From: Schmidtea polychroa
Taxonomy: Eukaryota
Direction of reading: 5' to 3'
DNA length: 64,000 nucleotides
NCBI GenBank assembly: GCA_044892525.1
Contig: CM097885.1
Span: 139,500,001 to 139,564,000 of the forward strand
In this document: piece after piece, positions 15,594-44,902 of the stretch
How positions within the stretch are numbered: position 1 is the stretch's first letter
How the letters are laid out: every line of letters begins with the position of its first letter
Notes under the pieces: model-generated
Database searches by the model: none
Seen by the model: only the letters and a program-made list of their open reading frames with translations
Told to the model about the DNA's origin: nothing
Position numbers and translations under genes: made by a program

Positions 15594-15599
15594 TTTATT
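15594..15599 (-). terminator. Likely poly(A) signal AATAAA in the 3' LTR
   Basis: Follows the LTR ORF stop and precedes a U/GU-rich tract. Equivalent position in LTRs B and C. Confidence 0.55.
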
Positions 15600-15733
15600 A
15601 TTAAGATTATCACACAAATATATCTAACACCTATACAATAAAGTTCACGACAACGGGAAAAGAGACAAGGTAAAATGTTATCAGACAATGTTCAGGTCAA
15701 TTCAGAGAACGAAGACTTTTTACGGGGAAGTTC

Positions 15734-18884: not shown

Positions 18885-18963
18885 TTACCTATTGAGGTGG
18901 TTTGATTAACAGCAAGCTTATTTAAGTTTCACTTACCTATTGAGGTGGTTTGATTAACAGCAA
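18885..18963. repeat. 31-bp direct repeat pair in presumptive U3 (enhancer-like)
   Basis: TTACCTATTGAGGTGGTTTGATTAACAGCAA at 18885 and 18933, and also at 45127 and 45175. Confidence 0.85.
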
Positions 18964-20251: not shown

Positions 20252-20292
20252 TCATTATGGTTTATTTACAATTGGTTTTAGTGACCCTTAAT

Positions 20293-21057: not shown

Positions 21058-21170
21058 TTATATAAAATTTTACTAGTTCGGGTTACAGTCCCTTGAATAC
21101 TTTTACAATACTTTAATTTTTTTGTTTGGGATATACGTCCCGATTTTTGTTTTTATCTTTTTATTCACCC

Positions 21171-22226
21171 TTATACGAAGGTTTCCTCCTGTCCCACATA
21201 ACCTTCATCACTATCGACCGCTGGATGCAACTGTATCGCAATAGGGTCATAGGGTAGGTAATATTGGGGGATTTGAGCTCTCAATTCATTAACTTCGTCT
21301 CTTAGAGCTCGAGTGATATTCAGCTCTTCGTCGAGCAGATAAGTGAGATACCTTGTCTCTTCGTCTTTCGCCTCTACTTGTCTATCTAAGGCCTTGATTT
21401 TCTCGTCGCCCTTCCATTTTTCAATTTCTATTTCCAAGTTTTTGATATTTTCGGTATACATTTTCCTCTCGTTTTCTAATTTTCTGTTTTTTCCCGCCAG
21501 GACCATGTTTCTTTGTTCCAACGATCCTTGTAATCCATTAAGGTCTCTTTTCATCTCTTCGACCTGATTTACTAATTCCACAACCCGTCCTGCTTGCTGG
21601 GTTATCATCTCTTCCATTGCGGCATTCTCGTGCTCTCTTATGTCGCATTTTATTGCCAAATGTCGTTCAAACTCCATAGCCTTCATCTGCCATGTTTGGC
21701 TTCGGGCGGCGACCTTTTTCAACCGTTTCAGTTCTTCCTTTATTATTAAATTTTCCTCCCATTTACCCTGTTCGCTCTCATATCCGAGTCTCATGGGCAA
21801 TTCTTTCATCTCTTTTTTCATTTCATTGCTTTGTCTTTTCCATTTTCTCGCTTCTGCCACTAAGTGCATCATTTTCCTTCCTTCTATTTGCTTTTCCGCT
21901 TCGCGCTTGGTGTTCTCATCGGTAAGTCTCTTTCTCGCTTCCTGCACTAGCTGCTTTAAGTAGTGGCTGTGCGCTTCTTGGCGGGTATTTTCTAGTGACG
22001 CCCATTTTGATGCTCTTTTGCATGCTTCTGCTTCCGCTCTTAAGTTGTGTATTAACCATTGGTATTGACTATTCTCATCCTCTCTAGCTTCTTCGATGTG
22101 ATTTCGGGTGAGATTAGTTAGTTGGAACATTACTTTGTTCCATTTTTTGTTATGTTCTCGGGGAATTTGTGTCTTGTTGACATTGGTTGGGGCTATCGCA
22201 GTTTCGGTTAGTTTCTCTTGTGTCAT
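21171..22226 (-). CDS. Accessory coiled-coil protein, 351 aa
   Basis: Intact long ORF predicted to be helical/coiled-coil. Confidence 0.8.
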   Translation of the reverse strand: MTQEKLTETAIAPTNVNKTQIPREHNKKWNKVMFQLTNLTRNHIEEAREDENSQYQWLIHNLRAEAEACKRASKWASLENTRQEAHSHYLKQLVQEARKRLTDENTKREAEKQIEGRKMMHLVAEARKWKRQSNEMKKEMKELPMRLGYESEQGKWEENLIIKEELKRLKKVAARSQTWQMKAMEFERHLAIKCDIREHENAAMEEMITQQAGRVVELVNQVEEMKRDLNGLQGSLEQRNMVLAGKNRKLENERKMYTENIKNLEIEIEKWKGDEKIKALDRQVEAKDEETRYLTYLLDEELNITRALRDEVNELRAQIPQYYLPYDPIAIQLHPAVDSDEGYVGQEETFV

Positions 22227-22419
22227 CTCTAAATCATAGACATCGATTAAGCTTTTTATTGTGAAAAAGGAATTTATTCATTATCTACTGTTTCTTTGGA
22301 AATTTTCGCATCATTTTTGGGTTTTCGTATTTAGGGTTTTCATACTATTATTATATAATATTTTATTGGTTATATACACCGATATATACAGATTATTATA
22401 TACAACATTATTCGATTGG

Positions 22420-23808
22420 TTACTCCGTTCTACCCTTCTCCTCTTTCCTCACGGTCATCTTGATATACACCGTGTCATTTCTTGCCATATCTTCTACTTT
22501 TTGTTGTAGGATGAACGTAGGTGCTCCTGTTGCTGATCCTTCTTCTGCCGTAGGTCTCTGGTAACACATTTGGTTTCCAGTTGTCTTGAAGCTTTGTTCG
22601 TGGATGCTTCGGTCATTCATTAGTGCAATATCGATTTTTGCCTGGAACGGCCACTCTATTATTTCGTCGTATTCCCCTTTACATAACAGAAAGAAAATCG
22701 AAAAGTGCGTATCTAATCCGGTTCCGTCCCCGTTGGGATATATCTTCATTTTCATTTTGTACCCATTTTTCCAAGAATGGAATGCAGGACTTGTTATTCT
22801 TGTCTCTTCTCCGGTTTTTGCTTTTCGTATTCTTTCTTTTACTCCCGTTATTTTCCATATGTAGGGTGCTGTTGGGGTTATCTCATTTAGATTTATTTCC
22901 CGTATTTTCTGATGTAGCTCCTTGGCCTGATTATTACTGATTTCTATTCGGTTTATTTGCATCTTTATGTTTGCTCGGGCTTCTTCGAACGCTTCCCTTT
23001 CTTCTAGTAGTTCTTTGACTAACACTTTCAACGATGTTATCTCTATCTCCATTTGTTTTACTTTCTCTTCGCTTTCTTGTAACGCAGTCGACCACATTTC
23101 TGCGTGGGTTGAAGCATTTTCTACTAAATGATGTGGTAACTCACCTCGGTGTAGTAGTTTCTGACAACCCCATCTACCTAGTACACATGTCATTCTTTTC
23201 TTTTCGCATTCCCTTAGATGCTGTGCCACCTTCATTATTTCCCCTTGGTTACATCCGTTTGGGCATTCCCCACTGAACTCTGCACATACTCTCTCCTCTT
23301 GGACATTGTGATGTTTGAGGGTGAGATTTTTCCACGTATCTATTTCTCCACAGTGTTCACATCTTTCCAATCTCTCTTCACACTGCCTTTGATGCTCTTT
23401 TTCTTCGCTTGCTCGAATGGTTTTATGGCACCTTTCACACTGGCCAATTCTGTACATACATTCTCCCATATGTTGTACTACCTTCCATATTACTCCTTTC
23501 CATTCGCATGGGGCATTTTTACATCCCAGGTTGGTGTTTAACATGTCTTTCACTGCGGCTTTATCCTCGTTAGTGTCTTCTAAACTCGATATTAGTGTCT
23601 CTTTACACACCGGGCACCTCTGTGGTCTATTCTTTATTGCTTCACTGATACATTCTTTACATACTCTGCATCCACATTGAGTTTGGTGAGGTTCCTTTAA
23701 CAACTTTTCACATATTCCGCACATAACATGTTTGTGTATTCTGATCGTTGTAGATTTTCGGACTTGCTCGACAATCTCTCTGAACTCTTCTCTTTGTCGT
23801 TTATCCAT
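22420..23808 (-). CDS. TRAF: TNF receptor-associated factor homolog (RING, TRAF zinc fingers, coiled coil, MATH/TRAF-C), intronless
   Basis: RING CGIC...CGCRVCKEC...CPVC; zinc fingers CKNAPCEW...HMGEC; MATH YIWKI...SPAFHSWKNGYKMKMKIYPNGDGTGLDTHFSIFFLLCKGEYDEIIEWPF. Confidence 0.93.
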   Translation of the reverse strand: MDKRQREEFREIVEQVRKSTTIRIHKHVMCGICEKLLKEPHQTQCGCRVCKECISEAIKNRPQRCPVCKETLISSLEDTNEDKAAVKDMLNTNLGCKNAPCEWKGVIWKVVQHMGECMYRIGQCERCHKTIRASEEKEHQRQCEERLERCEHCGEIDTWKNLTLKHHNVQEERVCAEFSGECPNGCNQGEIMKVAQHLRECEKKRMTCVLGRWGCQKLLHRGELPHHLVENASTHAEMWSTALQESEEKVKQMEIEITSLKVLVKELLEEREAFEEARANIKMQINRIEISNNQAKELHQKIREINLNEITPTAPYIWKITGVKERIRKAKTGEETRITSPAFHSWKNGYKMKMKIYPNGDGTGLDTHFSIFFLLCKGEYDEIIEWPFQAKIDIALMNDRSIHEQSFKTTGNQMCYQRPTAEEGSATGAPTFILQQKVEDMARNDTVYIKMTVRKEEKGRTE

Positions 23809-23893
23809 TCTATAATTATATGTACAAATAGCTCTTATCGATACAGGTTCGATATTTTATTTACAATTATTTACATTTTAAGCTAGGTTTGGT

Positions 23894-24412: not shown

Positions 24413-25414
24413 CTATATACGTGAGTTTGGAGGGCGCTGAGCGTTCCAGGCCTCCACCCACTGTTCTTGTTTGATATCACTTGGTCGTTTCACTCGATGT
24501 TGGAAATTTCTGATTCGGGTCATCTCTAGTTCTCCGCGATGTCGTTTATCTTTAATTATTTTTATTGTTCCCCCTGTTATGATTAGGAAGGCCCCTGTTA
24601 TTATTATCCCACTGATCCACATCATCTGCTTCACGCTTATATTCTCTGGTTTCTCCTTGTTCGTTAATGTTGATATCGCTTCTGTACCTTTCTCGTTTCC
24701 TCTTTTGCCATTTCCTTTCATCATTTCCCGTATTCTTGCTATTTCCTCGTTCATACCCTCCTTTGCCATCTTTTGTATTTTTTCCATCTCTTCCTCCGAA
24801 ACATAGTTGTCCTGAGCTTCCTCACCGGTTTTCTTGTGCTTTCCGCCTTCGTCCTTTTCGTCGTTGTTTTTCCTTTTCTTCCCTCTTTTCCCCGGGTATC
24901 GTCGACATTCCCTTTTTGATTCGTTCCTCCAGATACAAACCGTGTATTCTTTCGGCGGCTGCTGCTGCGTCACATATTGATGGCATCTCTCACCTGGTCC
25001 TAATCTTGAAATACAGACTTTGTGCTCTCTTCTAGGTTGGAGCTGCGTTATTACTACTTCACCACCTTTTCCTAGGTGTACCTCTTTTCCTTTAACGTTC
25101 GTTATTCTCTTCCCGTCCCGATTTCGGTATGCTTCTTGTATTCTTACTTCTGTTATTGGTTCTGTGTCCTCATTTATCAGTACTAGTTTCTGATACGCTC
25201 TAGACATGCATCTTCCTAGTATGCACCTTTCCTTTAAGTCCCATTCTTCCTTTAAATCCCACTGCTGCTCTTGTGCTTGCTTTTTCTTTTCTTGTTTTAG
25301 TTCATCCTCTTTGCTATCTTGATTCTCCGCTTCTTTGGTTTCTTTTATCGTTCTCGTCCCTCCATGAGCTGTTACTAACTCTATCATGGTAAGCATAATT
25401 ATCATTAATATCAT
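24413..25414 (-). other. C-terminal polyprotein module: signal peptide, FN3-like ectodomain, TM, short tail
   Basis: Signal-like MILMIIMLTMIELVTA; VVITQLQPRREHKVCIS resembles FN3 strands E-F; TM MMWISGIIITGAFLIITGGTI. Confidence 0.55.
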
Positions 25415-28400
25415 ATTTGTCTCTATTTCTTTGTTAGTGAAAGGTAGGCATACCCTCTGTTTTCCATTATTCGGTTTTTCCTCCTCTTTGGTCTTGGTTC
25501 CCGGGCTGTTTCCCTCTCTTTTCGTATCCAAATCCTTGTTTTCCGGTTTATCCTCTTCCGGTTCTCTTTTCCCTTTATCCTCTTTTCGGCCTTTTCCGTC
25601 ATTGTCATCGTGTTTATCTCCCCCGCTGTCGTTTAAAATGTCGTCCCCGACATTTATATCGTTCAATAATCTGCGATATCCTGTTAGCACTCTGTTTCTT
25701 GCTAATTTTGCTTCGAATTCAAACTCTTTTCTACCCGTTGCAGCATGTCTCTTTCTATTCCATTCTTTAACTAACTCTCTCAATTGCATACGACGATGTT
25801 TCCCAATTCGTTGTTGCTCGTTCTGATTTTTCGTGAATTTTAGGTCTTCTCTATTTAATACTATTAAAATAATTTTAGGCGTCCCCCCCTTAGTTAGGGT
25901 ATTCTTTACCATCGCATTTTCTCCGTTTTCGTAGAATTCGTTTACATTTATCGCATATTTATTATTTTGTGGTACTCTCCAGGTTAATAATAATTTCATT
26001 GCTTCTAGATTTTTCCGTACCGTATTCCATTGAAACTGAGATGTGTTTTTGCACATATTTTCAACTTCTTCTTTTGTCGCATTTTTGAAAATAAATCTGA
26101 TCATTTCTAAGTTTGGCTGTATGGTTGCCCAGTCCAATGTGGAGTTCCCTTCGTTTGATTTTTCGTCTAGTCTCGATCCTGATTGATGTAGGATGTGGAG
26201 TGTTTTTGGGTGTATTTTCGTTATAGCTGCATACATCATGGCGGTTTCACCTTGTTCATTTTTCGTGTTGGTTTCCTCGCCCATCTCCCCAAGGATTCTC
26301 ATGATCGTTATTGCTCTATTCTCTTTTGCAGCTAGTATTGCTTGTTGTAGAGGTGTTCTGGAATCCTTTGTTGCCATCGTAAATGCTCGAGGCAAGAAGG
26401 TTTTGATTTTCCCGATATCTAAACCCGTGGTTTGATCTCTTGCGTATGTGTGTACGGCTTTTATTATTTTTGACAATATTATTTCGTCTGATAGCTCTAG
26501 CATTTCCTCGAAGAATACTTCTTTTGCTTTGCGTATTATTGCCTCTTGATCTAGACTCATTGGTTTTGTTTCGATGACGTGGTTTGTGACCGTTTGGTTC
26601 GTTGTTGACTTTGATTCCCTCGGTTTCTCATACCTTATTTTCGTTTTCTTTCCGTTTAGATTATTGATTCGTTCCTCTGCTGTGAGTATTTGGATAATAT
26701 CCAGGTAATTCTCGCGGATGTTATTCATTGTGTCCATCATATATAACACACTTACCGTTTCCCAATATTTATTTCGTACCTGAGTAATGAATTGAAATAT
26801 TGATCTTTCGAATGTGTCGATTCGCTTTTTTAATAACTGCTCCTCTTTATGATTTGTGAATTTTATCCCTCGTTCTAGTAATTGATTCGGAATTTCGAAT
26901 AAATGATGTCCTTTCATAGCTTCTCTCATCAGCGTGTTCTCTCCTCTCGTGAACGCTTCGTTTACGTTGATCATATAATCGTTTTGAATTGGATTTCTCC
27001 ATGTAATTAATATTCCGGTAATTGTCGTCAATTTTTCTTTGATCGCTGTTAACAATCCATCATACATGTTTCCGACTTCTCGATTGTCCTCATATGATAG
27101 TAGTTCCATCAATGACGTGAACGCCTCGGTACTTCTCCCTTCGATAGCATGATGTAGAGCGTTTTTCCGCTCGTGGTCTTGTGTAGTTATTTTCGATCCA
27201 GTATCAAGTAATGCGGTTATAATGTCTTTGGTTTTGCCTCTGTTTGCTGCTATCATTAATGGTGTGTAACCTTGGTTGTTTGTTTGTTCTGTTGATCGCT
27301 TGCAGTCGTGAAATGCTTCTATTGTTTCTAGTATTTGCTCGTTGTTACCTACTTTCATGAGTTTGTGTAATGGTGTGTCTCCGTAATGATCTGTTATTGT
27401 AAATAATATTGGCCATTGGCTTTTGACTACTCGCAATAATGGGTGTGTCCTTTCTCTATTTGCATAGTTCTCGATCATCGTCAATAATCCTCCTAATATT
27501 TCGAAATCTAATCGATCTTTTGCCCATCCAGGTATTTTAATTTTTACCTCTTTTACAATCTTTTCCGCTTCTGATGGTTGGATACCCAATCGTCCAGTGA
27601 TCGGTTCTGCGAGTTGTTGCATCATGTTCATTCTGTAGGTTTGCGAACGTGTGGTTAATGTACGGCCTTCTGGTTGACTAGTGGCTGTTTTTGGAATTGA
27701 TTTGCATCGTGCCACGTTTACGTATATTGGCCTGGTAAATGGGTTATTTACCAATTTCACTCTTACATTGGTTTCGCCTACGAATAAGATCTCATATGGT
27801 CCTTTTCCGTTGCGTTGTAACTTTTTTGTGGTTCCTGGAATTAATTCCGGGGTTTCTATCATTACCCAATCACCTGTTTGAAACGTATGTTGCTTCACGT
27901 TTTTCTTTCGATCGTGTAAATCTTTATAACTTTCCTGGTAGAACTTGATATTTAATCCCGCAGTTTCCCAAATTTCTTGCATTCTTTCCTTGAATTTCGT
28001 AACATAATCATCGATCTCCATATACTGCGATATCGGTGGTTGGTATTCCAGGTCCATTGGCATATTACACTCTCTTCCGTACATTAATTTGAATGGGCTC
28101 ATTTTCGTTGATGCGTGAATCGACATTCTGTATGCCATAAGACATAGGTTTATATATTCGTCCCAATCTCGTTGGTGACGGTCGACGTAGTTTGATAACA
28201 TTTGTATAAGTGTTCCATTAAATCTTTCCGTCATCCCATTGGTTTGAGGGTGGTATGGAGATGTTCTTAGTTTTGCTATTTTGAAGTAATTTGTTACTTC
28301 GCTCATTATCTCACTCATAAAATTAGTTCCCTGATCGGTTAATATCTGTTTTGGTGTTCCATATCGGCAACATATCTCTTCTACCAAAATTTTTGCGATT

Positions 28401-31400
28401 GTTTTAGCTTTTTGGTCTGGCATCGCGAATGCTTCTGGGAATTTCGTAAGAAAGTCTGTGATCACTAGAATGTAAACGTTTCCTTTATCTGACTCTGGTA
28501 GTGGACCAACTACGTCCATGGATATCATTGTCATTGGTTCTATTGGTACTGGCATTGGCGTTAAAGGTGCTTTCCATTTCGATCCCGTATTCTTCCTGGT
28601 TGCACAAGTTAGACAATTTTTTACCCATTCGGTTACATCTTCAGTTAACGTAGGCCAAAAATATTTCTGTTTCATTCTTGCTAACGTCTTTTTCGATGAC
28701 ATATGTCCTCCCAATCTCCCATCGTGATATTGCGTTAGTAACTCTTTTCGTCGGTTTTCCGGTATACACATTAATCGTTTTTCCCCATCCATTATCAGCA
28801 ACCAATCTTTCTCTATAATATATCGGTGTCGGTGTTTATCCATATGTTCTTTTAATTTTTGGTCTTTCGCATATACATCTGTCTTTCCGGTTTTTACATA
28901 ATCGATAATTTGTTTTAATTCCGCGTCCTCTTGTTGGTCCTTTCGCAATTGACAGAAATCCAAATCTTCCGCTACTATTAAGCATATGCGTTGCATTTCT
29001 GAATCCACCAAATCTGGGAAAATAAATCTTGACATACAATCGGCGTTGGCATTTGCTCTTCCCGCTTTGAATTTTATAAATGGGGAGTATTCTTGCAATT
29101 GCATGGCCCATCTCATCAGTCTACTGGACGCTTCTTTATGTTGCCCTAACCACACTAATGGTTGATGATCGGTGGTTATGCATATCTCATGTCCCCATAG
29201 TAAATATCGGAAGTGTTTGATAGCTTGTATTATAGCCAATGCTTCTCGTTCTGTTACTGAATAGTTCTTTTCGTGCTTTTTGAATGTTCGACTGTAATAC
29301 CCGATTACTCTCTCTTTTCCTTCATCGTCTAATTGTCCCAGAATCGCGCCTGCCGCGTACCCGCTTGCATCCGTTGCCAATAGAAATGGCTTCTTAAAAT
29401 CTGGGTGTACTAGGATAGGTGCTTCGATTAGTTTATCTCTCAGCGTTTCGAACGCCTGTTGTTGTTCTTTTTCCCAAATGAACGAAATATCCTTCTTTAC
29501 TTATTCCTGGATTGGTTTTGCAATTCCTGCATAATTTTTGATAAATTTGCGATAGTATCCGCATAATCCTAGAAATTCCTGAACTTGGGTGACAGTTTTC
29601 GGTGCTGGACATGTTTTTATTTTCTCAATGTTTCTTGGATCTGGCTCCTTTCCTTTAGCTGACACTATGTGTCCCAAAAACGTGACTTTTTCCTTTGCCC
29701 AATCGCATTTTGATGGTTTGAGTTTGAGTTTCCACTGTCTTAATCTAATAAATACGTTTCGGATATCTTCCAGATGTTGTTCAAATGTCGCTGAATAGAT
29801 TAGTAAATCATCAATATATACCATACATTGTTTGATTCCATGGGTGACAAAATTCATACACCGTTGAAATGATGCTGGTGCATTGGTCAGTCCGAATGGC
29901 ATTTTCCTGAATTGATATAGATCTCGTCCCAACGTGAAAGCTGTTTTCTCTTTGTCCTCATCTTTGACTTTAATCTGCCAGTATCCACTTTTTAGATCTA
30001 AAGAAGTAAAATATGCTGCCCCTTGCAACATCAATAACATCTCATTGATGTCCGGCAATGGATAGGTATCTCTCTTGGTTACTGCGTTTAACTTCCGATA
30101 ATCGATACAGAATCGTTGGGTGCCATCTTTCTTTTTTACCATGACCACTGGGAATTGCCAGGGTGAGCAACTTGGTTCGATTACTTTTGCGTCTAGTATC
30201 TTTTGTACTTCTGTTTCGGCTATTTCTTTCTGCATTTCTGCTAGCTTGTATGGTCTCAATGCAATTGGGGTTTCGTCTATGAGTGGTATTGCATGTAAGG
30301 TAACATCACATGTACCCAAGTCTAAATCTGAGATGGCGAATATATCTTTATATTCTACCAACAATCGGTGCAATTTTTTCTTTTCATCATTCGTCAACAA
30401 CATACTATCTATTGTCCATAATTCATCATCTTTGATCATCTCGTTGGTCACTTTCGGTAATTCTATGTCCATCATTGGGGTCAATCTTCCCAATTTTTCG
30501 TTCTCATAAATGATTTTGTCTTCCTCTTCGAAATTCGTGATGTTGAGCGGTATCACTCCTTCTTGGTTTATTGTGATTATTTCCCTTGCGAGTGGTAACT
30601 CTCGTCGCTTTTCAAATGACTTGCTTGGTTCAAAGATAACTTCTCCTTCCATACCCGTATCCACTTTTATCTGACAAATCATCTGCGATTTTGCTGGTAC
30701 TATTATTTTTTCTGGACATCTGATGACTGCATTCATTTTGCATATTCTACCGGTTTTGTCTTTTAAACACATGGTTGTTAAGTCAATTACGACTTCTTTT
30801 AACAATTCTGGCATCAAATCCGTTCCGATTATGCATGGTACGCTAAGGTTTGGTATTACTGCCAAATACGTTTCGATTTCGTTGTCCTGGTATCTCAAAG
30901 TAGTCCACCATCTTCCGACCACGTCCACTGTTTCTTTACTACATGCTATGATGTGAATTGTTGTTGATTCGATATCTTTCCAGTGTTTACTGGGGATTTG
31001 ATTAATCGCTATCGCTGATACATTAGCTCCGGTGTCTATCATAGCATTGGTTTCTTTACCATTGATTTGAATCATAACTGTTACTGCTGGACCTCCAGGT
31101 AGACTCATCGCTGCTATTGTTCTTACGTCATCTGCTTGATCTACACTTTTGGTACGTCGTGTTGGCATATAATGCATACCGGGTTGACTCGGTAATTGCG
31201 GATACATATTTTGTGTCATGGTCAAAGCTGCTTGTGGTCCCACGATATCCGGTGGTATGTAGCTTCCATTGGCGATCCAGGTATTTGTCTTTTCCTTTTC
31301 CCAATATGGTGCCGTTTCCATTGGTTTTTCGTTTGGGTTTCTGTTTGGATATAAACATTTGTCGTTCCCGTTAGCATCGTCGTCACTATCGCTGTTAGAT

Positions 31401-34400
31401 GATTGGCTTCTAAATCTGTCCAAAAATTTTTGCTTATTCTTTTTCAATTGTCGTCTTGTTGCTTCGTCGTACATTACTTTCCGGAATCGTCTGCCTACTT
31501 CCTCGTCGGTTCCTTTAATCTTTGTTAGTATTTTAATCAATCGCTTTATCCGATGAATGTCTTTTGAGTGACCATGTAATACCATGGTTTTAGCTAAAAA
31601 TGGTAGAAAGCCTACTATCATTTTCCAATTTACTTTCTTTTCTCGCTTGTATATATCAAAACACGCTAACATTTGTGTTAGTATTACCCTGACTATCTGA
31701 ATTATGAGTATGATCCCTAATATCCCGGCCATCATTTGTCCAAAAACTAAGAATCTTCCCCACATTGCTTTCATCATGTTTGACGTGGCTTGTTGAAAGT
31801 GGTCTGGCGATAGTAGCAGTTCGTAATTCGGGCCTGATTGATAATTTGTTCCCCCCGTTATTGTAACCATATTTGACAAAATGGATTCTCGTCTGGCTGG
31901 GAAGAGTACGTTAAGTCGTGCTGTTTCTAGATCTTCTGGGGAATACATACCACCGTTTGACACGTCTATAGGTTTGAAATCTAGCTCTGTGGCGAGTTCT
32001 ATTAATCCAAATTTCTTGGGCTCCTCGGATATGGTTTTTCCCGGTAACATCATCCATTTTCCATCGGGCCTTTCATACAAAGGTCCGTATGCATTAGAAC
32101 AGTTAAAGAGATTTGGGTAGAAACCCACTGGATTCATAATTCTAGTGACTGGTTGGACGAATCGATTTTGTCCTTTATAACGGATTTCTAATTCATTTGC
32201 ACATCTCTTTTCGGGTAGTATAGATTTTTCTGGCATTCGTGCATACGTCTTGGTACACTGGTATGTGTACATTACTTCTCCTACCATTCTACCAAAATGT
32301 CCATCCGGTAATGGGAGTGATGGCATCGTGTTATCTGGGTGCGTTATCGCAATAGCTAGCTTTGTTTTCAATATTTCTTTATTCAATGAACAATCGTTTT
32401 GTATCAGATCGTAATATACTTTTTGCAAGGTCGTTTGTCCGCGATGAAATAGAAAATCCATTTTATTATTTGCATATAAGTATAGTTTTACGTCCTCCGT
32501 TGCTATCTTTCCCACTGCTCTATCGATTATTTGTCTCGACATATAGATGCCTGCGTAATTGGTTTTATATACTATACTGTCACATTTGGTGGTTTCTTTC
32601 TCTTTGATAAATCTCATACCTAGATCTGGATCGTCTGTGATTAATGCTGTTGGTGTCTTCTGCGTTGAAAGTCTCTTTTCTCTGGGAGATGGTGGCATTG
32701 GTTTTCCATTTCGCATTCTCACTCTGTCGTTTCCATCCTCGTCGTTCTCGTTCTCATATATTTCTCCTTTTACTTCATTGAACAAAGCACTTTTTAACAG
32801 TTGGAGTCGGCATTTTTGGGTATTAGCTTCATAGATTATAGTTGATACTCCTGTCCTACATACGTTTTCTGTAGCTCTACACGCTGGGTTGGTCTTCATT
32901 TGGTAATTATTTGCGTCAAATTGCGCTTCGTATTCCTTTAGTTCAACCGTATAGGACTCAATCACTACTACCCCCGATATTACTTCGCCTCGGATCGTAT
33001 ACGTACCTCCGTTACATGACCCATCTGATGATTTTACTTTTCCGGATACGTAAACGCTTTCGGTTTTAATCATTCCAGTTTGTCCGTGAATCGTCACTCC
33101 GTTATGCATTTTTAGCGCTCCGGTTCTAAATAGCTATTTACAGTCCTCTCGTTGTATTGATACGATTTCTTTATCCAGACCAGGTAGTATAAGAGTCGAA
33201 TACGAATATTGTCCACAGTAATATGCGAGTACCTTTTTTGATACTACGCATTCCCTTGCTTGCGTTCTGATGAAATCTGATTCTTGATATACATGGTAAG
33301 TAACTTTTGTTCTTACTATGTCTAATTTGTTGGGTGATGCTTGTCTGCATTCTTCTATGTCTCTCAATGAGTATTTATCTCTCATTATCATATTATCACA
33401 ATCGTAGATGGTAAAACCCGTTGCTCCACTGGTGCACAACATCCATATCATCATAGTCATCATTAACGAATTTATTGATGCTTTTCTGCTTGCGGGATCT
33501 TTCATCGGTAGTTCCCATTCTAGTTCATTTAACAGTTTTTTCAATCTAACTTGCATCGACCTTTCTTGCTCATTTTTTCGTGGCGCTTGTATCAGTCTTT
33601 TCCATCCTCCGGCACGAATAATATGTGATTCAATAGTATTCTCTATGATTGAAACGGTCATTTCCACATGATTTGCAAACTGTTTATTTGGTATTTTCCT
33701 CGCGGCTAGTCCCATCAAATTATACATCAAATACGTGATTACCACTAGGTGATGTTCGTCGTCATTTGCGTTCGTCGTGAGCTGTTCAATCACTCTCTTT
33801 GTTTCATCCCAGTCCGTTTTGGTGGTTTTCGTTTTCTCTTTGATTAACTTTGGGATTATCCCCGAAACGATGTGCCATAATTGTCTAGCTTCCGTACTGG
33901 CTACTTTCCGTTGCCACAAACGTCTAAGTTGTGGGTTTGTTATTATTAACATATCTTTTATCAATTCTCGTATCCATTTTTCTCCTCTTTCGATCGTTGG
34001 TTGGGCTTCCTTTAGATCCCATACTATTTTATCCAATTTTTCTAATCGAACTTGCCCTTGTTCTTGCTTTAATTGTTCTTTGGTTTTGAACTCAGACTTT
34101 TCTCCTTGTTTCTTAGGTCTTCCTTTTGCCCGTTTTTCCATCATCGTTCCGGCTTCTCTGGTATTTTCGTAATTCGGATTTCTTTCGTTATCCGTTCTGG
34201 GTAATGAGCTATCGTTATTTCTTAGCCACTCATTCCATTCGTCTATTATTTTATCGGTTTGACCTTCTGGTGTTACTTTCGTTGGTTCTCTTTGCTTCTG
34301 GAATTGTTCATCCGTTTCGGTTTCCGTAGTATTGTCGATGATTTCTTTGATGTTCAGTTTCGTTGGTTGTTGATAACTCGTTGATGGCTGGTTATTAGTC

Positions 34401-37400
34401 CACATTTCGGCTCCTGTCGGCCATCTCACTAATAGCGGTGATCTTTCTCCTGGTTCATCGTCACTATCTTCCAGGATTATCTCTTCAACTTCTTCAGTTT
34501 CATTAGATTTACTTGGTGCTTTGTTCGGACTTGGAGTACTCAAACTGCCTTTTGTTGGTTTAGTAATTTTACTTTTCCTTTTTAACGGTTTCCCCAACGT
34601 TTCGGCCATTGTTAATACATTTGTCTCTTCCAATCTCATGGGTGTTATTCCGACGTCTGCATTATCGTCTAGTGATTTTCCGAATAGTTGCAGATGGAAT
34701 GGAGTTTCATATGCTAATTTCTTTTTTAATTCTCTAATTTTTGTTGTTGGATGCACCTCTAGTTCTTCGATGCTCTTGTCCGGGTACTTGATTCGGATGT
34801 GATACCTCTCTTGGGTGTCTTGTGCCCATTCCTGATTTCTCCATTTTCGAATAATTTGTTCTAGCTGTTCTGGATACCATTCATTATATTGCCGGTATTC
34901 CTCTATTGCCTTTGCCATTCCTCTCAGATTGTGGATGTTCTCTGATGTCTTTAAGATGATGTTAGCCAACGCTACTACTTGGCGTTTTTGATTTTTCGCT
35001 CCCATTGCTAAGATATCGCCTAATTGTTTATATCTTTCTGTCTCTTCTCGTTCTCTTGCTTCCGTCGCTTCCTCGCCGTCCATATCAGCATATTCACGTT
35101 CCTTTTTCCTCATTGCATGAATATGTCTCGCTTCATTTTCGCTTTCTGATGTGACATCCGTCTCGCTTTCGTCATCTGATGTCTGTCCCCTTGCTTCCTC
35201 TTCATATTCTGGAGGTTCCTCTTCTTCTTCCTCCGTTTCACTTTCTGTCTCACCAATGTCTGTTTCTACGAAGATTCCTTTCCGGATTTCCCATTCCTTA
35301 TTTTCAGCATTCCACACTCTTTCCCATGGGGTTCGTCTGCAGGATCTGGTGCTTAATTTCGTGATTTTTCCTTGTAGTTCTTTTTCTTTTAACCATTGTT
35401 GGTGGATTTCAATTATTTCTGTAGATTTCTGATATAACGTTTTCATCCGGTCTCGTATTTCTTTTTGATAGATTACATCTCTTGTTCGAAATTCATCCAT
35501 TGGTACTATCCTGATGATCTGATGATTGTCCCACATACCCAATTCGCTTAACGAGGTGTCGTCTTCTGCTCGTAATATTATTTTATCGTACATCATGACT
35601 ACATCATCCACCATACCATCACTACTTTCGCTACGTACCTTTTCCGTTATCTCTTGGTTTATCTTTGATACCAAGTCATCCACTGTACTCTGATTGCTCA
35701 TTTTTATTCGTCGTTTTTCTTCGTTCGGTAACCATATGGTTATTTCCAACCTCTGTGGCTGGGTTTCTTTCAACCTTCCATATTTGTGGATCAAATTTAT
35801 GGTTCTCCAATCACTCATCCGGAGCATTTCTGTATCTCGCAATCGGCTCATTAGTTCGTACATGGCTGGGGCTCGTCTGGTGATGAGTAGATCCCAGTTG
35901 TCTTCCACTTGTTCTTGAATTTGTTTGATCAGCTTATCCAGGTTTCGTCTCAGAGTACATTGTTTTATTTGTTCTAATTTCAATTTGATATTAAAATCAT
36001 ATTCTGCCTTGGCATCTTTAGCCCAATCGTAAAGGTTGGCTGGTTGTTTTTCTTTATGCAACTTTAGTATTTGCGTTTCTCCTGGCCATATTAGTGCATC
36101 TACTAAGTGCATATCTGGTTTAATCTGTTCTCCTTGGTATTGATACAGATATTCTTTCTTTCTCGAACTTCCCAAATGTTCTCGTATCCAATCGAAAAGT
36201 TCGTCGGTGACTGTATTTTTTATCCACATTCTTTCAAGTCCTCTACTCGTTCCGATTTTTATTACATACCGCGTGGTATCGGCCTGCTTCATTTTTCCCA
36301 TATACTTTTTTATAATTGATTTTTCTTCGTTTGGTATTAGATCTTTCTCGTTTCTTTCCAATTTCATCACTTTTTGCACGAATCGCCTGAATGGTATTAC
36401 GTCGATGAACTCTTGGTTCCTCACTACTACTGGGAGTATTTCGGCTACCTGTTTTATCGCTTCCTCCCTTGCTTTTCTCAACTTTATTTCGATATCTTCG
36501 TCTTCACTTTCACTGGTTATCTCGCTTTCGCTTTCTTCTTCTTTGATTTCCCCTTTTGGAGGTTCGCTTATTTTATTCGGCTGTAGTATTTCTCCACCCA
36601 AACTACTTACATAGTCTTCTTCTTCGTCTGACGATGCTACCTCTTTTGTCCTTTTCATCATATTGATTTGCAAATTTCTCATCCTTGGTACTCTCTTTAG
36701 TTTCTTTCTTTCGAATATCGTTGTTTCTTCTGATTCTAATTCTTGTAGCATTTGGTGGTTTAGTTGACTGGTTTGTTCCTTGCTCTTGTTATTTTCATCT
36801 TCTGTCTCGGCTTTCGCTTTATTATGTTCTTTTTCGATTTTATCTTTTATCTTTTTCCAGAATATTTTCTGAATTCTCTGGTTTCCTTTTAAAATCGTGG
36901 TTGAATTCTCTGTTTTCATTTCCGTTGTTGTTTCTGTTACCTTTTCTGGTTCAGTCATGGGTACTACCCTTGGGTTTTTCCCGTAATTGTAGCAATACTG
37001 GCTTTTCATGTCTTTTACTAACTTCATCATATTAATTCGCAATGGTTGTTCTTGTCGTTGTTGGTTGCGTTCTTGTTTTATCCTCTCTTCCTCGGCCTGT
37101 AGTCTTTGCCATTCTTGTACATGTTGATGCACTTCATAATTGTTGAGATTTTCGGTACTCCTCATCATACGTATATTCTGGGTTTGTTGTGGTGCTGATT
37201 CCGGTCTCGGTCTCATCATTTGTTGCATCATCTGTTTCATCTGCGAGATTTCCTGCATAACGTTCATTTGTTTTCCTTCGCTAGGGTTACTTTGTCGTTG
37301 CGGATTCGCCATATAATTATTATTTCGCTGTGGTGGTCGTTGTTGTTGGCCCCTTTCTCGGCAATCTCTGGAGATGTGACCTGGCTGACCACAGTTAAAA

Positions 37401-38266
37401 CAACCTCTCAATTGGCATACATTTTCGGTATGTCCACGCCGTCCGCAACGATTACAATTTGAATTTCTATAGCAATCTCTGTCCCAGTGTCCTGGTTTAC
37501 CGCATGTTCGGCACTGCTTGTTATCGTTCATATTTCGTCGATTATTGAAATTGTTCTCATTATTCGGGTTGTTACGATTACCATTATTCCCATTTGATCG
37601 TCCTTGTGGTGGTTTGAAAATTTGGTGCGCTCCTGGTATAAATTGATTCATTTTCGGTTCTTGATTGTTGTTATCTCCGTTATCCGCTTTCGCTATTGCT
37701 GTCATTATCCTTCCCTCCTCTTGCATAATATTCATTTGAGCTGGAAGGTGGAGCTCGCATCTTGTAGCCCAATCTATGGCTTCCTCTAATGTTTTGCACA
37801 TTTGACAACCTACTGAGGCTCTTACTTCTTCTCGGCGTAATCCCTCTATGAAATAACCGATCAGATTTTCTTCGGGTAATTTTCCATTCATTGCTTTCTT
37901 CGCTAATCTCCGCAATTCACTGGCATATAATGTTATCGATTCGTTTGCTCTTTGTTTCCTATTTGCTAGTTCGCCCAACGCCTGGTTGATTGGCTTACTG
38001 GCTCCGAAGGTTTTCTTCAGGAATGTTTTGATATCTTCCCACTTTTCTAATTTCGTATCTCTCTCTTTAGTTTCTAAATATACTTCTAATGCGCTATCGC
38101 ACAAAAACAACGGCATCCTTTTACTAATTGCTTCGGGTGTCCATCCACATACAGTGATATAAACTTCAAAATTAGTTATGAACGTTGCTAACTTGTTTGC
38201 ATTTCCGTTGAACGGTTCTCCTCTGAACTTTTCTTTATACTCGTCGGTTTTTACGACATTCGTCAT
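24413..38266 (-). CDS. gag-pol: Single Gag-accessory-Env-Pol-accessory polyprotein frame (4618 codons) with two internal stops (33134-33136 TAG, 29501-29503 TAA)
   Basis: ORFs 33134-38266, 29501-33109 and 24413-29380 share one frame. The gaps translate without further stops: EDCK*LFRTGALKMHNG and KPIQE*VKKDISFIWEKEQQQAFETLRDKL...PFLLATDAS. Confidence 0.92.
26090..26370 (-). other. Ankyrin repeat block 2
   Basis: SRTPLQQAI, NEQGETAMMYAA, NEGNSTLDWA. Confidence 0.8.
27100..27400 (-). other. Ankyrin repeat block 1
   Basis: DHYGDTPLH, NNQGYTPLMIAA, DHERKNALHHA. Confidence 0.88.
27700..28760 (-). other. pol: Integrase (H2C2 zinc finger, DDE core, GPY module)
   Basis: H-X5-H...CLTC; ISMDVVGPLP, LTDQGTNF, NGMTERFN; GPYEI. 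Confidence 0.97.
29030..29500 (-). other. pol: RT connection and RNase H
   Basis: ATDASGYAAGAIL, NYSVTEREALAII, TDHQPL, NANADCMSR. Confidence 0.95.
29504..30330 (-). other. pol: Reverse transcriptase
   Basis: RFCIDYRKLN, LDLKSGYWQ, MPFGLTNAPASFQR, and catalytic YIDD at 29807-29818. Confidence 0.98.
30740..31100 (-). other. pol: Retropepsin aspartic protease
   Basis: AMIDTGANVSAI (DTG at 31028-31036) and CIIGTDLM. Confidence 0.95.
31570..33463 (-). other. env: Envelope-like glycoprotein resembling chuvirus (Jingchuvirales) G, with own signal peptide and TM
   Basis: Signal MMTMMIWMLCTSGATG; motifs YCGQYS, GSCNGG, LYANNK, DCSLNK, GEVMYTYQC, CANEL, FVQPVTRI, GGMYS, FPARRESIL; TM FGQMMAGILGIILIIQIV. 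Recognised by motif recall, not by search. Confidence 0.75.
33590..34040 (-). other. Divergent Bcl-2-like helical domain
   Basis: Ends in BH2-like HIIRAGGWKRL, preceded by a BH1-position hydrophobic helix HLVVITYLMYNL. The NWGR motif is absent. Confidence 0.55.
34605..34810 (-). other. Ubiquitin-like domain 3
   Basis: YHIRIKYPDKSIEELEVHPTTKIRELKKKL...LQLFGKSLDD matches the beta-grasp pattern. Confidence 0.65.
35500..35755 (-). other. Ubiquitin-like domain 2
   Basis: LEITIWLPNEEKRRIKMSNQSTVDDLVSKI...LSELGMWDNHQIIRIV. Confidence 0.55.
36057..36271 (-). other. Ubiquitin/SUMO-like domain 1
   Basis: YVIKIGT...LFDWIREHLG...YQYQGEQIKPD...LIWPGETQIL. Confidence 0.45.
37361..37513 (-). other. gag: Three CCHC zinc knuckles (nucleocapsid)
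   Basis: CRTCGKPGHWDRDC, CNRCGRRGHTENVC, CFNCGQPGHISRDC. Confidence 0.97.
37760..38266 (-). other. gag: Gag capsid region
   Basis: Retrotransposon-gag pattern RKQRANESITLYASELRRLA...YFIEGL...KTLEEAI upstream of the knuckles. Confidence 0.85.
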
Positions 38267-38925
38267 GATTGGTGTTCTAGATTCGTCTGTTTCTTTTAAA
38301 TTGTCTAACGATGTGACTAAACTTTGGGCTGATAATTCCTCGGTTGACGTTGCTAAACTATTAGTGATGTCGGACAGACTTTCTCTGCTTCGAGATCGAC
38401 TAGGGGTGTATCCGAGATTTTCTTGGTCAAATATAGGTACTTGATTGGTTCTTCTTGATCCTTGCGATATTCCTCTTTGCTGTTTAATAGATCGTCCTCT
38501 TTTGAGTTGTTGTAATTCGTCTCCTGAAAATAATACGTCTCCTGGCTTACTTGAAGATCTAAGATTGGGTTTATCCGTGATTCCTTTCTTACGCTTCTTG
38601 GTAATTAGCGGCTATTGAATTGGACGAGTTCGGTTCTGATTGTGTTTCCTTCGATAAATATTCTGTATGGATCTGCTACTGTGATTCTGAGGAGATTCAC
38701 TAGTCCTTGACAGATGGCTGCTAATATTATGAGGTTGAATATATCGATGATTCGTTCGAAGTTGGAGATATCGCTATCTGTATCTTCTTCCGTTCTGGAG
38801 TCTTCCGGTTGCTGTGTCTCTCGGTGCGGGTTCTGAATGAATTTATTCTTGGTCGATTGTCGATTTCTTCGAATTCCTTTTGTGCAGGTTCTGGATTGTC
38901 TTGGTTGACTGGATTGGTTTGATAT

Positions 38926-39630: not shown

Positions 39631-40030
39631 TTACGACTGGCTGGCACTATTCAACAGCTCAATCTTCCTCCTTCTGATCGGTTGGACTATTCGACAACTC
39701 GATCTTACGACTGGCTGGCACTATTCAACAGCTCAATCTTCCTCCTTCTGATCGGTTGGACTATTCGACAACTCGATCTTACGACTGGCTGGCACTATTC
39801 AACAGCTCAATCTTCTTCCTTCTGATCGGTTGGACTATTCAACAACTCGATCTTACGACTGGCTGGCACTATTCAACAGCTCAATCTTCCTCCTTCTGAT
39901 CGGTTGGACTATTCAACAACTCGATCTTACGACTGGCTGGCACTATTCAACAGCTCAATCTTCCTCCTTCTGATCGGTTGGACTATTCAACAACTCGATC
40001 TTACGACTGGCTGGCACTATTCAACAGCTC
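39631..40030 (-). repeat. 74-bp x 5.4 tandem array of alternating 34/40-nt hairpin subunits in the leader
   Basis: Units start at 39631, 39705, 39779, 39853, 39927 and 40001. There are no unique spacers, so it is not CRISPR. Confidence 0.95.
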
Positions 40031-40181
40031 AGCTTTAACATTCTTTACTATGCATGCTTCTACTTCTCTTTTCTTCTTTTACTCAAGATTACCATTTTCT
40101 CTGTCTATTTTTAATTTGTTGACTTAATCTTTACCGCTCGGAAGTGTGTCCCCTTTCCCCCCTTGCTCAAAACGCACGACG

Positions 40182-40594: not shown

Positions 40595-41131
40595 TTATTC
40601 ACCATAATAAACCATATGAGTTTCTTTTATTTCATGCCTACATATCGTACATCGTTTTAAATCGTTCACACATTCTTCGCAGTGACTGAGGTGTCCACAC
40701 GGCAAAAACAGTACGCGAATAGGACGAAGTTTACAAGCACGACAAGTTCGTAGTAGAGTCAGTTTTTCTTGTATTTTCCGCTCGATTGTATCTGATATGG
40801 TATTTAGTGGATCTTTTATACGTTGATAATCAAGATTTAATGCTGGGTGGTTCAATCTCTCTTGATACCATTGATACACGGTTTCCGGGTTTACCTTCCC
40901 CTCTGGGTGACTTAGTCCTGTGGCTAATAACATGTCGTTGGGGACGGCTGGTGTTTGCCCGATTGCTTGAAGTAGTATGATGTTAATTCTTTCTCTTTTT
41001 TGTGTCAGCGTTTTAAGGGAGTCATTCTCGATGTTTATGAAGTTGATTAGTTGTTGTATCTGGTCCACGAATTCCGTCATGTCTATTAAAAAAAATGTTT
41101 CAGTAATATATGACTTCGTTTCGTCAAACAT
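40595..41131 (-). CDS. IAP-type C3HC4 RING protein (no BIR), first ORF after the PBS
   Basis: CRACKLRPIRVLFLPCGHLSHCEECVNDLKRCTICRHEI at the extreme C-terminus, as in IAP E3 ligases. Confidence 0.85.
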   Translation of the reverse strand: MFDETKSYITETFFLIDMTEFVDQIQQLINFINIENDSLKTLTQKRERINIILLQAIGQTPAVPNDMLLATGLSHPEGKVNPETVYQWYQERLNHPALNLDYQRIKDPLNTISDTIERKIQEKLTLLRTCRACKLRPIRVLFLPCGHLSHCEECVNDLKRCTICRHEIKETHMVYYGE

Positions 41132-41381
41132 TCTCTTTTCTAACTCGTTATCATTATTTTACTTTTATCTTATTTCTCCATCATTAAATTTGCTTTATTT
41201 ATATTTTTAATTTTATTATTTTCTATTCGTGATTTATAATAAGATTCGATAAGTATTAGTCAATTTGCACTCGCTAACCCATTGAAATCACTGATCCCCG
41301 GTGAGTTCACTCTATTCGACAGAAATTCACTCAATAACATCCTTATCCAGTTTACACTAGTCAATGGAAATTTCAATCTAA

Positions 41382-41399
41382 ATCCCGGCTGAGCCCCCA
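41382..41399 (-). promoter_or_regulatory. Primer-binding site (tRNA-Pro-like) of element A
   Basis: TGGGGGCTCAGCCGGGAT has 16/18 identity to the canonical tRNA-Pro PBS. A 7-nt spacer TAATTTT separates it from the LTR. Confidence 0.85.
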
Positions 41400-41833
41400 A
41401 AAATTATGTTGCGGGTACACTACTCGGATGACCCCTTTCTAGTGCAACTTTAGTCTAGAGGATGAATGCCACCTCGATTTCGCCCATCATTTATTTGGTC
41501 ATCGCCGAGCGGGACCCGTACATAACTTACACTCCAACATAGCACCCGTGAATTGCTTCACGTTGGAACTGTGCTATGCCGGCGAGACGCCAGTAAGCAG
41601 GTGAGCCAGCTCCTTCGGACTACTCCTTACTGAGGCCTCGACTTCCCAACCCTGACTGCCGATAGAAGGACTTACGTCTACTCATTCCGTCGCCCCATCG
41701 CAATATTTCTAGCTGAGTTTACCAACTGACTAATGCTCCTCATAATTTTATGACTCTCAATACCATTTACCAATTTCAACTCAACTGTCTTAAGATGAAC
41801 ACAAAGAAAAAAAACGTATGCAGACAAAAATGG

Positions 41834-41839
41834 TTTATT
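41834..41839 (-). terminator. AATAAA poly(A) signal copy in the 5' LTR
   Basis: Same site as 15594-15599. Confidence 0.5.
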
Positions 41840-41973
41840 ATTAAGATTATCACACAAATATATCTAACACCTATACAATAAAGTTCACGACAACGGGAAA
41901 AGAGACAAGGTAAAATGTTATCAGACAATGTTCAGGTCAATTCAGAGAACGAAGACTTTTTACGGGGAAGTTC

Positions 41974-42723
41974 TCATTTCTCCCACTCCGAGTCTGCCAA
42001 TAGATCTTCCAAATCGAAAAACTCAGAGGCGTTTTCCTCCCAGGTAACACCAGCGGCGGAGGTGATTCGCCCTGAGATCACTGATGCTAAATCGATTGCT
42101 GCAGGAGGGTTGATGACTTTGATTGGATGATCCGACGATTGCTGGTTCTGTTTGGCGGTCACGCGTTCCCGCTGTTTCTTTTTGCGTTCGGCTCTCGATA
42201 ATTGCCGACGCTTCGGCTTCGCTGCCGTTGGATTGGTCGGGGGTGCTGCAGAGGTAGATGCCATCACAGGTAACGCTTTACTGGTTCCGGTAAAGATGAT
42301 TTCTGGTTCTTTGGGTGAGAGTTCGGTCTCTACGCACCCATTGCAGGACTTTCCGACTGGAGAAGAAGACCCGCCAGAGATATCATGATGCGCTGGGAAA
42401 AGATTACTGGATTCATTAATTGGGATCTTCGCGATCTTCCTTGTAGTTGCTGCCTGGACGTATAATTTGCGCAGCGCCTCCGACTGCTCTTTTATCAGGC
42501 TCCTCTGCGCCCGACTCTCGGAAATCAACGCGTCTCTACAGTGCTCGCTTCGGTGCAGCTTCTTCTGAACCCCCTTCATCTGGGTGGGACTAAACCATGT
42601 CCCCTCCAACTCATCTATCCTTCTTTTGTGCTTTCCGATTTGGGCCTGGAGCTCTTTGATAATTGAATTCTTGTCGGAGTAAGAAAAACAAGGTCGAAGA
42701 ACGGTCTTGGAATTTGGCAACAT
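41974..42723 (-). CDS. LTR-encoded 249-aa protein (coiled coil, TWFSP motif, basic Arg-rich motif)
   Basis: Intact ORF with homologs in LTRs B and C. A splice acceptor lies 10 nt upstream of the ATG. Confidence 0.75.
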   Translation of the reverse strand: MLPNSKTVLRPCFSYSDKNSIIKELQAQIGKHKRRIDELEGTWFSPTQMKGVQKKLHRSEHCRDALISESRAQRSLIKEQSEALRKLYVQAATTRKIAKIPINESSNLFPAHHDISGGSSSPVGKSCNGCVETELSPKEPEIIFTGTSKALPVMASTSAAPPTNPTAAKPKRRQLSRAERKKKQRERVTAKQNQQSSDHPIKVINPPAAIDLASVISGRITSAAGVTWEENASEFFDLEDLLADSEWEK

Positions 42724-42733
42724 TTTTGAGTGA

Positions 42734-42770
42734 CTGTGGAAAAAAATGAAAAATGAAAATAATTAACTCA
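42734..42770 (-). promoter_or_regulatory. 3' splice (or trans-splice) acceptor for the LTR ORF
   Basis: TTTTCATTTTTCATTTTTTTTCCACAG|TCACTCAAAAATG. Confidence 0.6.
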
Positions 42771-44870
42771 ACGGGAGTGTCACCATCGGACCACCTTCAT
42801 ACTTTATTGATCATAGACAAAAATATGGGTTTACCAGTCAAGACAAGTTCTACTGTGCGATGGATCCTCCTACCCTTTGGGTCTTAATCATAAGAAGGTA
42901 AATCGATCAAACCAGATTTCGCGCCAAGAAAAGAAGATATTACCATTAGTGAGAGAAATTCTAGGTCGATGAAAATGATTATTTATTTAATCCGCTTGAA
43001 GTCGTTACTTCACGTTTACCGAGAATCGTGTTAAGTTGTTGACTTCTTCCCCCCGTACGAGTGATTTTGATGGGTGTATCATATACTGGGGTCGAGTGAC
43101 TATCTATGAAAAAAGGGGGTCCATAATGTCCGTTGATCAGTTCCTACAGGATAAACGGAAAGTTATTTAATTTCTTTTTTATTATTTATTCATTCTCTCT
43201 AATTACTCACATATGTGTTTTACCTGGTTTACATAATATTTATTTAATAATATTCGATATTAATGTTAATGATAATCATGTCAAAATGAAATAATTTCTA
43301 TGCCATTCATGCTAAGATAATAAAGAGAGAATAATCATAATTATGATCGGGTTTATCATTAAAAAATATTGTCTTTATGATATCTGAGCACGGTATCAAT
43401 GTGAGCTAGTAGCCGACCATTCCTGCTAGGTAGATAAGGAAATGTCAGCCCGGTGGTTGACTATTAATCCGGAGCGGTGAAATCTGATAGCTGTCGGTAG
43501 TTTAATTGGCATGTTCGATCTAATTTTACATGAGTAGATGCGTGTGTGACTTTGCCTACTGTACTTGGCTACTAGGTAAGTCTGCAACTGGTGACGCATG
43601 CAAGGTGCGCTTTCACACACTTAATTATACTACAAATGCAGGCGTTGAATGTTTGCATGATGGCATTCTCTCAGAATTTTATCCACCGCGTAATCACTCA
43701 CAATTCTACGGCATATGGTGATGATTTACTAATTCTCACCGGATTATTGAAAAAATTATAATTATCTGTATTGCAAATGTTGGATATAGCTTGCTCCAAG
43801 GGTGGATTTTTCGTCTTTAATTCCTCAAGCCTAGTTTATCAATCTACTCTCTAAGTGCTGGAGGATTTTTTCCTATCCCTGCTGGGTTGCCAACCTCATG
43901 AAATACTGGAATTTTATATTTAATTAACAAGATCATCGGCTAACTTGAAGAAATATATTTTCTTGGTTCGAGTTGGTTGCATTTTTCATTGTTAAATTAT
44001 TTGATGCCAATAGTTTATGTAATTATGATAATTAATTGTATGTAAATTCTTTTATATATAATTCTAAAAATTTATGATAGCGAATCATTTTATGCAATTT
44101 AAACTTTTATTTGGAACAAACTCGTTTTTTGTAATTCTGAATAACTTTTTGGATTAAATCATTTTACATGGTTCTACCATTTATTTACAAGCGGTCATTT
44201 CGGGTAATCCTAATACTTGTCTAAAGCAATCTACTTTGAACTCCCTTGCAACTATGTCTTTAAGAGAACTTTTAGATGAACGGAATAACAGTTCAGAAGG
44301 TCATAGGCTAAAAATCGTCGGAACAGATTCTGAGTGAAAAGTATGAACATCGAAGATATGTCACAGATAGCCTCACTAAGGTTTGAACAATTCTTGACGC
44401 ACAACTTACATTGATGATGAAGAAAAAAGTTTTCTTAGCAAAAACGACATTCGAAAACGATAGTGTGACACCCTCAATCACTGCGCGAATACATCAAAAT
44501 TCTCCGATTCCTTTATTACATATCTTTGTTTTCAATCACTACATGACTATCAATTTTCTGCCACCATTTACCTATAGATTTTAGTCGCACCTTCAGCAAT
44601 TGGACCCGTGAAGAAGCCCTCACATTTCGGCCCAATCTAGCTGCGTGATTGAAATACCCTATGTCCACCGGTGGAGCTCCCGAAGGCACCTCACACCATG
44701 ACATAGAGTATCTCAACGCCACGTTTCTCGCAAGATTGAATAGTCTCCAATAATAATTCATAAAAATTAATTCATAAAAGATCAATAATTCTTAACGAGC
44801 AAATCATTTATTATTAAGCAAACTATTAATTTAAATAGAGCATTCGAAAATCAAACGAAAAGAAAAACCC

Positions 44871-44902
<32 letters not shown>

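Follow-up and report, generated by a model that had tools for sequence, protein, structure and literature searches.

The window, a stretch of 64,000 nucleotides from Schmidtea polychroa, contains on its minus strand a giant Ty3/gypsy element of the Burro type, which extends from position 15167 to 45597 and measures 30,431 bp including its long terminal repeats (LTRs). The 5′ LTR (41407..45597, minus strand, 4,191 bp, TGTTG...CAACA ends) and the 3′ LTR (15167..19359, minus strand, 4,193 bp) are 99.43% identical over 4,197 columns, and a CAAA target-site duplication flanks the element (15163..15166 on the left, 45598-45601 on the right). A primer-binding site of 18 nt (41382..41399, minus strand) is complementary to the 3′ end plus CCA of host tRNA-Pro(TGG). 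The features of a Ty3/gypsy-type element, namely LTRs with TG...CA ends, a short target-site duplication and a tRNA primer site, are all present. The pattern of tRNA-Pro(TGG), the primer tRNA of the element, has 1,580 matches in the genome, and its genes form a long tandem array with 475-bp spacing at ~130.90-130.95 Mb (contig C1, locus L139). Upstream of the main reading frame, ORF1, the element carries an accessory ORF with a C3HC4 RING finger (40595..41158, minus strand; PF13920, E 1.1e-11) and a tandem repeat of 5.4 copies of 74 bp (39631..40031). Downstream follow a TRAF-like accessory ORF with RING and MATH domains (22420..23856, minus strand; PF21355, E 3.8e-26; PF22486, E 1.2e-25) and three more accessory ORFs of 368, 254 and 219 amino acids without confident family (19592..22277, minus strand). 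Within the LTRs an antisense ORF is found at 41974-42762 (plus strand, 262 aa, 5′ LTR) and 15734-16336 (plus strand, 200 aa, 3′ LTR); similar-looking ORFs lie at 2524-3036 and 10326-10847, and none of these has a confident Pfam family. Positions 676-8424 hold the remnant of a related element, in which fragments of gag are frameshifted and the DNA resembles the 5′ region at 76-81%; no env was found in the 40 kb to its left. Two ORFs at 52547-53179 (plus strand) and 63525-63998 (minus strand) resemble, by their motifs, what we take to be pieces of Tc1/mariner-type transposases.

ORF1 (24413..38611, minus strand) comprises 4,732 codons with the first ATG at 38266, and in this copy it is interrupted by two in-frame stops. 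According to Pfam its domains follow each other in the order Gag, Env, PR, RT, RNase H, IN and ankyrins. The capsid domain and CCHC zinc knuckle of Gag lie at 37358..38113 (PF03732, E 1.4e-9; PF00098, E 2.9e-8), the aspartyl protease at 30803..31078 (PF00077, E 8.6e-10), the reverse transcriptase at 29663..30139 (PF00078, E 4.1e-36), RNase H at 29087..29476 (PF17917, PF17919), the zinc-binding and core parts of the integrase at 28247..28765 (PF17921, PF00665) and the ankyrin repeats at 26093..27343 (PF12796, E 1.2e-16; PF13637), all on the minus strand. The PR-RT-RNase H-IN order within pol is that of Ty3/gypsy elements, in agreement with the Gypsy-type host named in the first-pass annotation. 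Between the zinc knuckle (frame residue 418) and the predicted signal peptide of Env (residue 1717), some 1,300 residues contain no confident domain. Directly before the signal peptide lies a possible, weakly indicated BCL2-like domain (33602..33811, minus strand), which PF00452 matches with E 0.083 here and with E 0.00096 in the relative P0006; a search of the PDB with this segment gave no sequence match. The 115 codons ahead of the first ATG (38269-38611, minus strand) are open in unbroken siblings, with a pN/pS of 0.15; translation may thus begin at a non-AUG codon, or there may be an exon further upstream.

Env occupies positions 33463-31570 of the minus strand, and its 631 codons share their frame with the upstream Gag and the downstream PR-RT. 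Cysteine makes up 2.5% of it (16 in 632 positions), compared with 1.0% upstream and 1.5% downstream, and 12 of the 16 cysteines are conserved at 90% or more in an alignment of 112 sequences. A predicted internal signal peptide (33416..33463, minus strand) is followed by an ectodomain predicted to be of class III (31763..33415, minus strand; PF24664, gB-like fold) and by a transmembrane region (31649..31762, minus strand) with a Kyte-Doolittle maximum of 2.53 and a long helix in the model. PF24664, the Monjiviricetes fusion glycoprotein family, is matched both before and after the stop codon within Env, with E-values of 2.1e-10 and 5.7e-52 and scores of 39.7 and 177 bits against a curated cut-off of 27. 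The Pfam scan matched no other glycoprotein family, the F-type (class I) Env of gypsy and baculoviruses included. An F-type (class I) protein was considered and is not supported, given this sole match together with the predicted class III fold. A furin-like motif, REKR, is present at Env residues 261-264 inside a low-confidence loop of the model, and there is only one N-glycosylation sequon, at residue 454. A HMMER scan with the open Env of the sibling L004 retrieved 1,064 relatives among 1.84 billion proteins. A word-indexed homologue search with Env returned none of 5,189 candidates at near length and one of 4,398 at longer length, a sequence search of the PDB gave no match at E 1, and the Atlas matches all scored below 0.9 and are leads only.

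The structure of Env was predicted with AlphaFold2 on the alignment of 112 relatives and gave a model with a pLDDT of 87.4 and a long central helix formed by residues 327-374. When this model was compared with the PDB by Foldseek, herpesvirus gB appeared in every row listed (best E 4.9e-14); the match is to be read as one of fold class and not as a close superposition, since TM-scores were 0.35-0.42 and the rmsd was ~11-12 Å in most rows. A second, independent aligner (VIA) yielded a Z-score of 9.7 to HSV gB over 427 residues and placed five chains of gB at the top (Z 9.7 to 6.9), followed by rabies G, Chandipura G and Bourbon virus GP. Among the predicted viral structures of BFVD the best match (E 1.6e-38) was the glycoprotein of a chu-related virus, and chu-like viruses took most top ranks, a likeness that is partly built into the model because the alignment is rich in chuvirus-like proteins. 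Taken together, profile and model make a solid case for Env as a predicted class III glycoprotein of the gB/chuvirus type. The profile and structure search of the region had been proposed in the first-pass annotation, and its reading as a chuvirus-like glycoprotein is borne out by the PF24664 match and by a model that is closest to chu-like glycoproteins and gB. The predicted fold agrees with the gB-type class of PMC13524379 and departs from the relationship to F-type proteins that PMC6431247 suggested in 2019.

The copy in the window is broken. A TAG inside Env (33134..33136, minus strand, Env residue 110), private to this copy among those examined, and a TAA between RT and RNase H (29501..29503, minus strand) leave it unable to make the fused protein. 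A DNA search of its own genome gave 329 candidate copies, of which 40 were scored and 30 retrieved, one of them being this copy. At all 29 sibling loci a sense codon takes the place of the TAG, and the Env frame is open in 28 of them. The whole frame of 4,732 codons is open in 7 of the 18 siblings that were extended, the other 11 having stops or frameshifts. The Env segment is thus present in intact siblings, and since their frames are open, the fused Gag-Env-Pol layout is a property of the family. The suggestion of an Env fused in frame between Gag and protease was right in frame and order; in this copy the fusion is interrupted by the two stops, one of them in Env, and Env lies ~1,300 residues away from the zinc knuckle. 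Two further families in the genome share the layout, and their Env is 35-38% identical.

Env is under purifying selection. Among the seven unbroken copies its pN/pS of 0.02 is the lowest of 12 segments (RT-RNase H, 0.04), a figure that is only indicative because these copies are related and were picked for being unbroken. In 632 codons, 76 vary by synonymous changes only and 6 by non-synonymous ones. The fact that no other segment is as constrained as Env speaks for an Env that is still functional. Its work could be an intracellular job, as an anchor for assembly at the ER or in the fusion of particles with an inner membrane, with no particle leaving the cell. The single sequon fits such a role, as does the fact that, per PMC13524379, the transmission route outside Drosophila is unknown. 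The strong constraint across the ectodomain and the conserved cysteines speak for a full fusogen, a state with which fusion inside the cell is also compatible. We regard a purely intracellular role as unlikely.

The signal peptide of Env is Met-rich in this copy and stays below the Kyte-Doolittle thresholds used; its hydropathy is weak in the family as well. The call rests on the conserved pattern in relatives and not on the hydropathy of this copy. All 14 polyproteins compared have a hydrophobic stretch ahead of the conserved Y/F-D-C with which Env starts, and small residues at -3/-1, resembling a signal-peptidase site, are found in 13 of the 14. Upstream of this site each polyprotein has between 129 and 1,715 residues in frame. 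The initial description of a region of about 630 amino acids with its own signal peptide, cysteine pattern and transmembrane segment, in frame, was correct in length, frame, cysteines and transmembrane segment, while its signal peptide is recognised only by way of these relatives (13 of 14). The polyproteins of alphaviruses and flaviviruses contain internal signal peptides that are cleaved, and by analogy we infer that the internal signal peptide of Env is likewise cleaved.

We therefore consider it probable that the region represents the env of a giant Ty3/gypsy element of the Burro type and encodes a predicted class III fusion protein, which intact copies likely translate within one polyprotein and which host signal peptidase would free at the internal signal peptide; the copy in the window is broken by stops. 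Gag and the domains that follow it would be synthesised as cytosolic parts, after which the internal signal peptide would direct the ectodomain of Env into the ER, and Env would become a type I membrane protein. Because its transmembrane segment would stop the transfer, PR-RT-IN would again be cytosolic, presumably tethered to the tail of Env until the protease cuts. A second signal peptide and transmembrane segment at the end of the polyprotein would translocate another ectodomain into the ER. All three products, Gag, Env and Pol, would thus be located at one membrane from the outset, and this would favour the budding of enveloped particles able to pass from cell to cell.

The 1:1 ratio of Gag, Env and Pol that the first-pass annotation derived from the layout holds only if all Env stems from unspliced RNA. 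Retroviruses and Drosophila gypsy as a rule express env from an RNA of its own, and Env might be in frame here and still come mostly from a separate RNA, spliced or internally initiated at the Met-rich signal peptide, so that the ratio would not be 1:1. Several Met codons open the signal peptide, and an ATG at this place would permit such a transcript. Among the 15 joints listed of 28, none was a splice joint at Env; the read data (four contig runs, three of them only guessed to be RNA) are uninformative in this respect. Against this reading, all 14 polyproteins keep the frame open ahead of the signal peptide, and since Pol can be reached in no frame other than that of Env, a full-length product has to pass through Env in any case. 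A separate source for most of the Env therefore appears distinctly unlikely, and translation within the polyprotein is the preferred reading.

At the end of ORF1, hydropathy indicates a second predicted membrane protein consisting of signal peptide, ectodomain and transmembrane segment (24578..25429, minus strand). It is constrained in this family, with a pN/pS of 0.08 among the seven unbroken copies. Such an ending is also found in family 2 (L101:4048-5190, minus strand) and in the relatives P0003, P0007 and P0015, and the ectodomains of these five lineages show no significant mutual sequence likeness. Searches of Pfam, Atlas, homologues and PDB gave no match or, for the PDB, none that is useful, and a single-sequence model reached a pLDDT of 48. 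The protein contains an L-x-P-x-x-x-Y motif that we take to be one of FN3 domains. An FN3 identity was rejected: with a profile of 23 host FN3 domains, the scores of the five ectodomains were also reached by 19 to 180 of 200 shuffled sequences, and hhalign gave a probability of 20%. One could go further and regard Burro-type elements as enveloped flatworm viruses in which the whole virion derives from one four-pass polyprotein; the internal signal peptide would anchor Gag, the class III fusogen would follow, and the fast-changing terminal membrane protein would serve as an attachment partner, like gH/gL or gD for gB. We consider this extended proposal very unlikely.

For the origin of Env a tree was calculated with FastTree from 121 of 154 rows, 33 having been dropped for covering less than 70% of the profile or spanning more than 800 residues. 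Env clusters (SH 99) with 12 further rows, all from long proteins of polyprotein type, to which it is 26-39% identical, and in most public members of this group a protease domain follows Env. Their sister group consists of seven other proteins. The 100 rows left over, most of them stand-alone glycoproteins, lie apart; the identity of Env to stand-alone glycoproteins is only ~18-24%. The sequence P0068, in which a DUF5641 domain precedes the glycoprotein, falls in the other main clade; it is the sole BEL/Pao marker sequence, DUF5641 being presumably a BEL/Pao-type domain. The comparison with BEL/Pao env that had been called for thus places Env in a separate clade, as judged by one marker, and supports an Env lineage that appears separate from BEL/Pao env. 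Several relatives have peculiarities of their own. P0003, P0004, P0005, P0009 and P0016 contain two or more protease-like stretches after Env (Pfam), and in P0143 immunoglobulin domains precede the PF24664 glycoprotein. P0007, a 2,627-aa Env-PR-RT-IN polyprotein, is labelled as a Flavobacteriaceae MAG protein and is likely animal DNA binned into the MAG.

The tree gives neither a donor nor a direction, because it is midpoint-rooted and most of its tips are nameless. A recent, independent capture of env from a chuvirus by this lineage would fit the best BFVD matches, which are chu-like glycoproteins, and the position of Env outside the clade of the BEL/Pao-linked sequence. Against such an event stand the grouping with 12 polyprotein-type envs, the low identity to the stand-alone glycoproteins, the difference of 62-65% in Env between the three families of this genome, and the occurrence of GAG-ENV-POL in three phyla, for which an ancient origin is argued in PMC13524379. 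A recent capture is highly improbable on these grounds. Of the earlier proposal of an independent capture, the separation from one BEL/Pao-linked sequence stands; the capture itself finds no footing in an unrooted tree with few named tips and sits poorly with the ancient association.

The position between gag and pol, which had been thought unusual, is not new. In the Burro elements of planarians, Arkhipova & Yushenova (2019) described an env that lies in frame between gag and pol (PMC6431247). Chary & Hayashi (2026) reported that Nematoda, Bryozoa and Platyhelminthes have GAG-ENV-POL Ty3/gypsy elements whose Env is gB-type and Chuviridae-like, six of these elements being from Schmidtea mediterranea (PMC13524379, which cites Sacco et al. 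2022 for nematodes). Because the headline arrangement is already in print, the present copy adds little by itself. Its family, for which a first search gave 329 candidate copies, many of them recent and unbroken, is a possible test case; the topology predicted here and the membrane protein at the end of ORF1 offer concrete targets in native tissue, and both bear on how gB-type errantiviruses enter cells, a question raised in PMC13524379.

The assignment to Burro follows the published description of the layout and not sequence identity to Burro1-4 or GYPSM1. Like Burro/GYPSM1 as described in PMC6431247, the element exceeds 30 kb and has LTRs, its ORF1 of 4,732 codons compares with 4,873 and 5,140 aa, and it shares the CCHC Gag, an env that precedes PR in frame, the ankyrins, the MATH/TRAF domain and a tandem repeat. 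The MATH/TRAF domain is part of a downstream accessory ORF here, whereas it lies inside ORF1 in S. mediterranea and upstream in D. tigrina (PMC6431247). A BCL2-like domain directly before env is a Burro trait (PMC6431247) to which only the weak PF00452 match corresponds here. BIR and dUTPase gave no Pfam match at E 0.01 in the element, and an RA-like match had E 0.036; the SUMO-like and dUTPase-like motifs of that review came via HHpred. PMC6431247 tied the env of Burro to gypsy Env and its F-type kin, in contrast to the class III fold predicted here.

Smed_errantivirus_1-6 and the other 'HSV/gB-type' errantiviruses of PMC13524379 share with the element the GAG-ENV-POL order, a gB-type Env, flatworm hosts, the multicopy state and coding spans of 14.5-18 kb. 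Domain I-II of Smed_errantivirus_5 is the closest by eye, with common motifs such as YQESDFIRT and VELKEYEAQFD. For the six Schmidtea elements the table of PMC13524379 gives no tRNA primer site or LTR, both of which are found here, and the words 'polyprotein', 'in-frame' and 'Burro' are absent from its main text. The Anakin BEL/Pao elements (PMC7642597, PMC10084718) have a glycoprotein of the same Pfam family but belong to a different LTR superfamily; their glycoprotein follows the integrase on a BEL/Pao backbone, whereas env precedes PR here. The glycoproteins of Jingchuvirales-like viruses and herpesvirus gB share the predicted fold and the cysteine pattern, but they are stand-alone type I proteins, and Env is 16-20% identical to chu-like G and ~10% to gB. 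The second membrane protein and the tRNA-Pro primer site were not found in the published descriptions searched; Grohme et al. 2018 and its supplements may show them. In comparison with these systems, the in-frame gag-env-pol layout (PMC6431247) and its combination with a gB-type env in three phyla (PMC13524379) are already published, and what is added here are the conserved internal signal-peptidase-like site, the primer site and the second predicted membrane protein.
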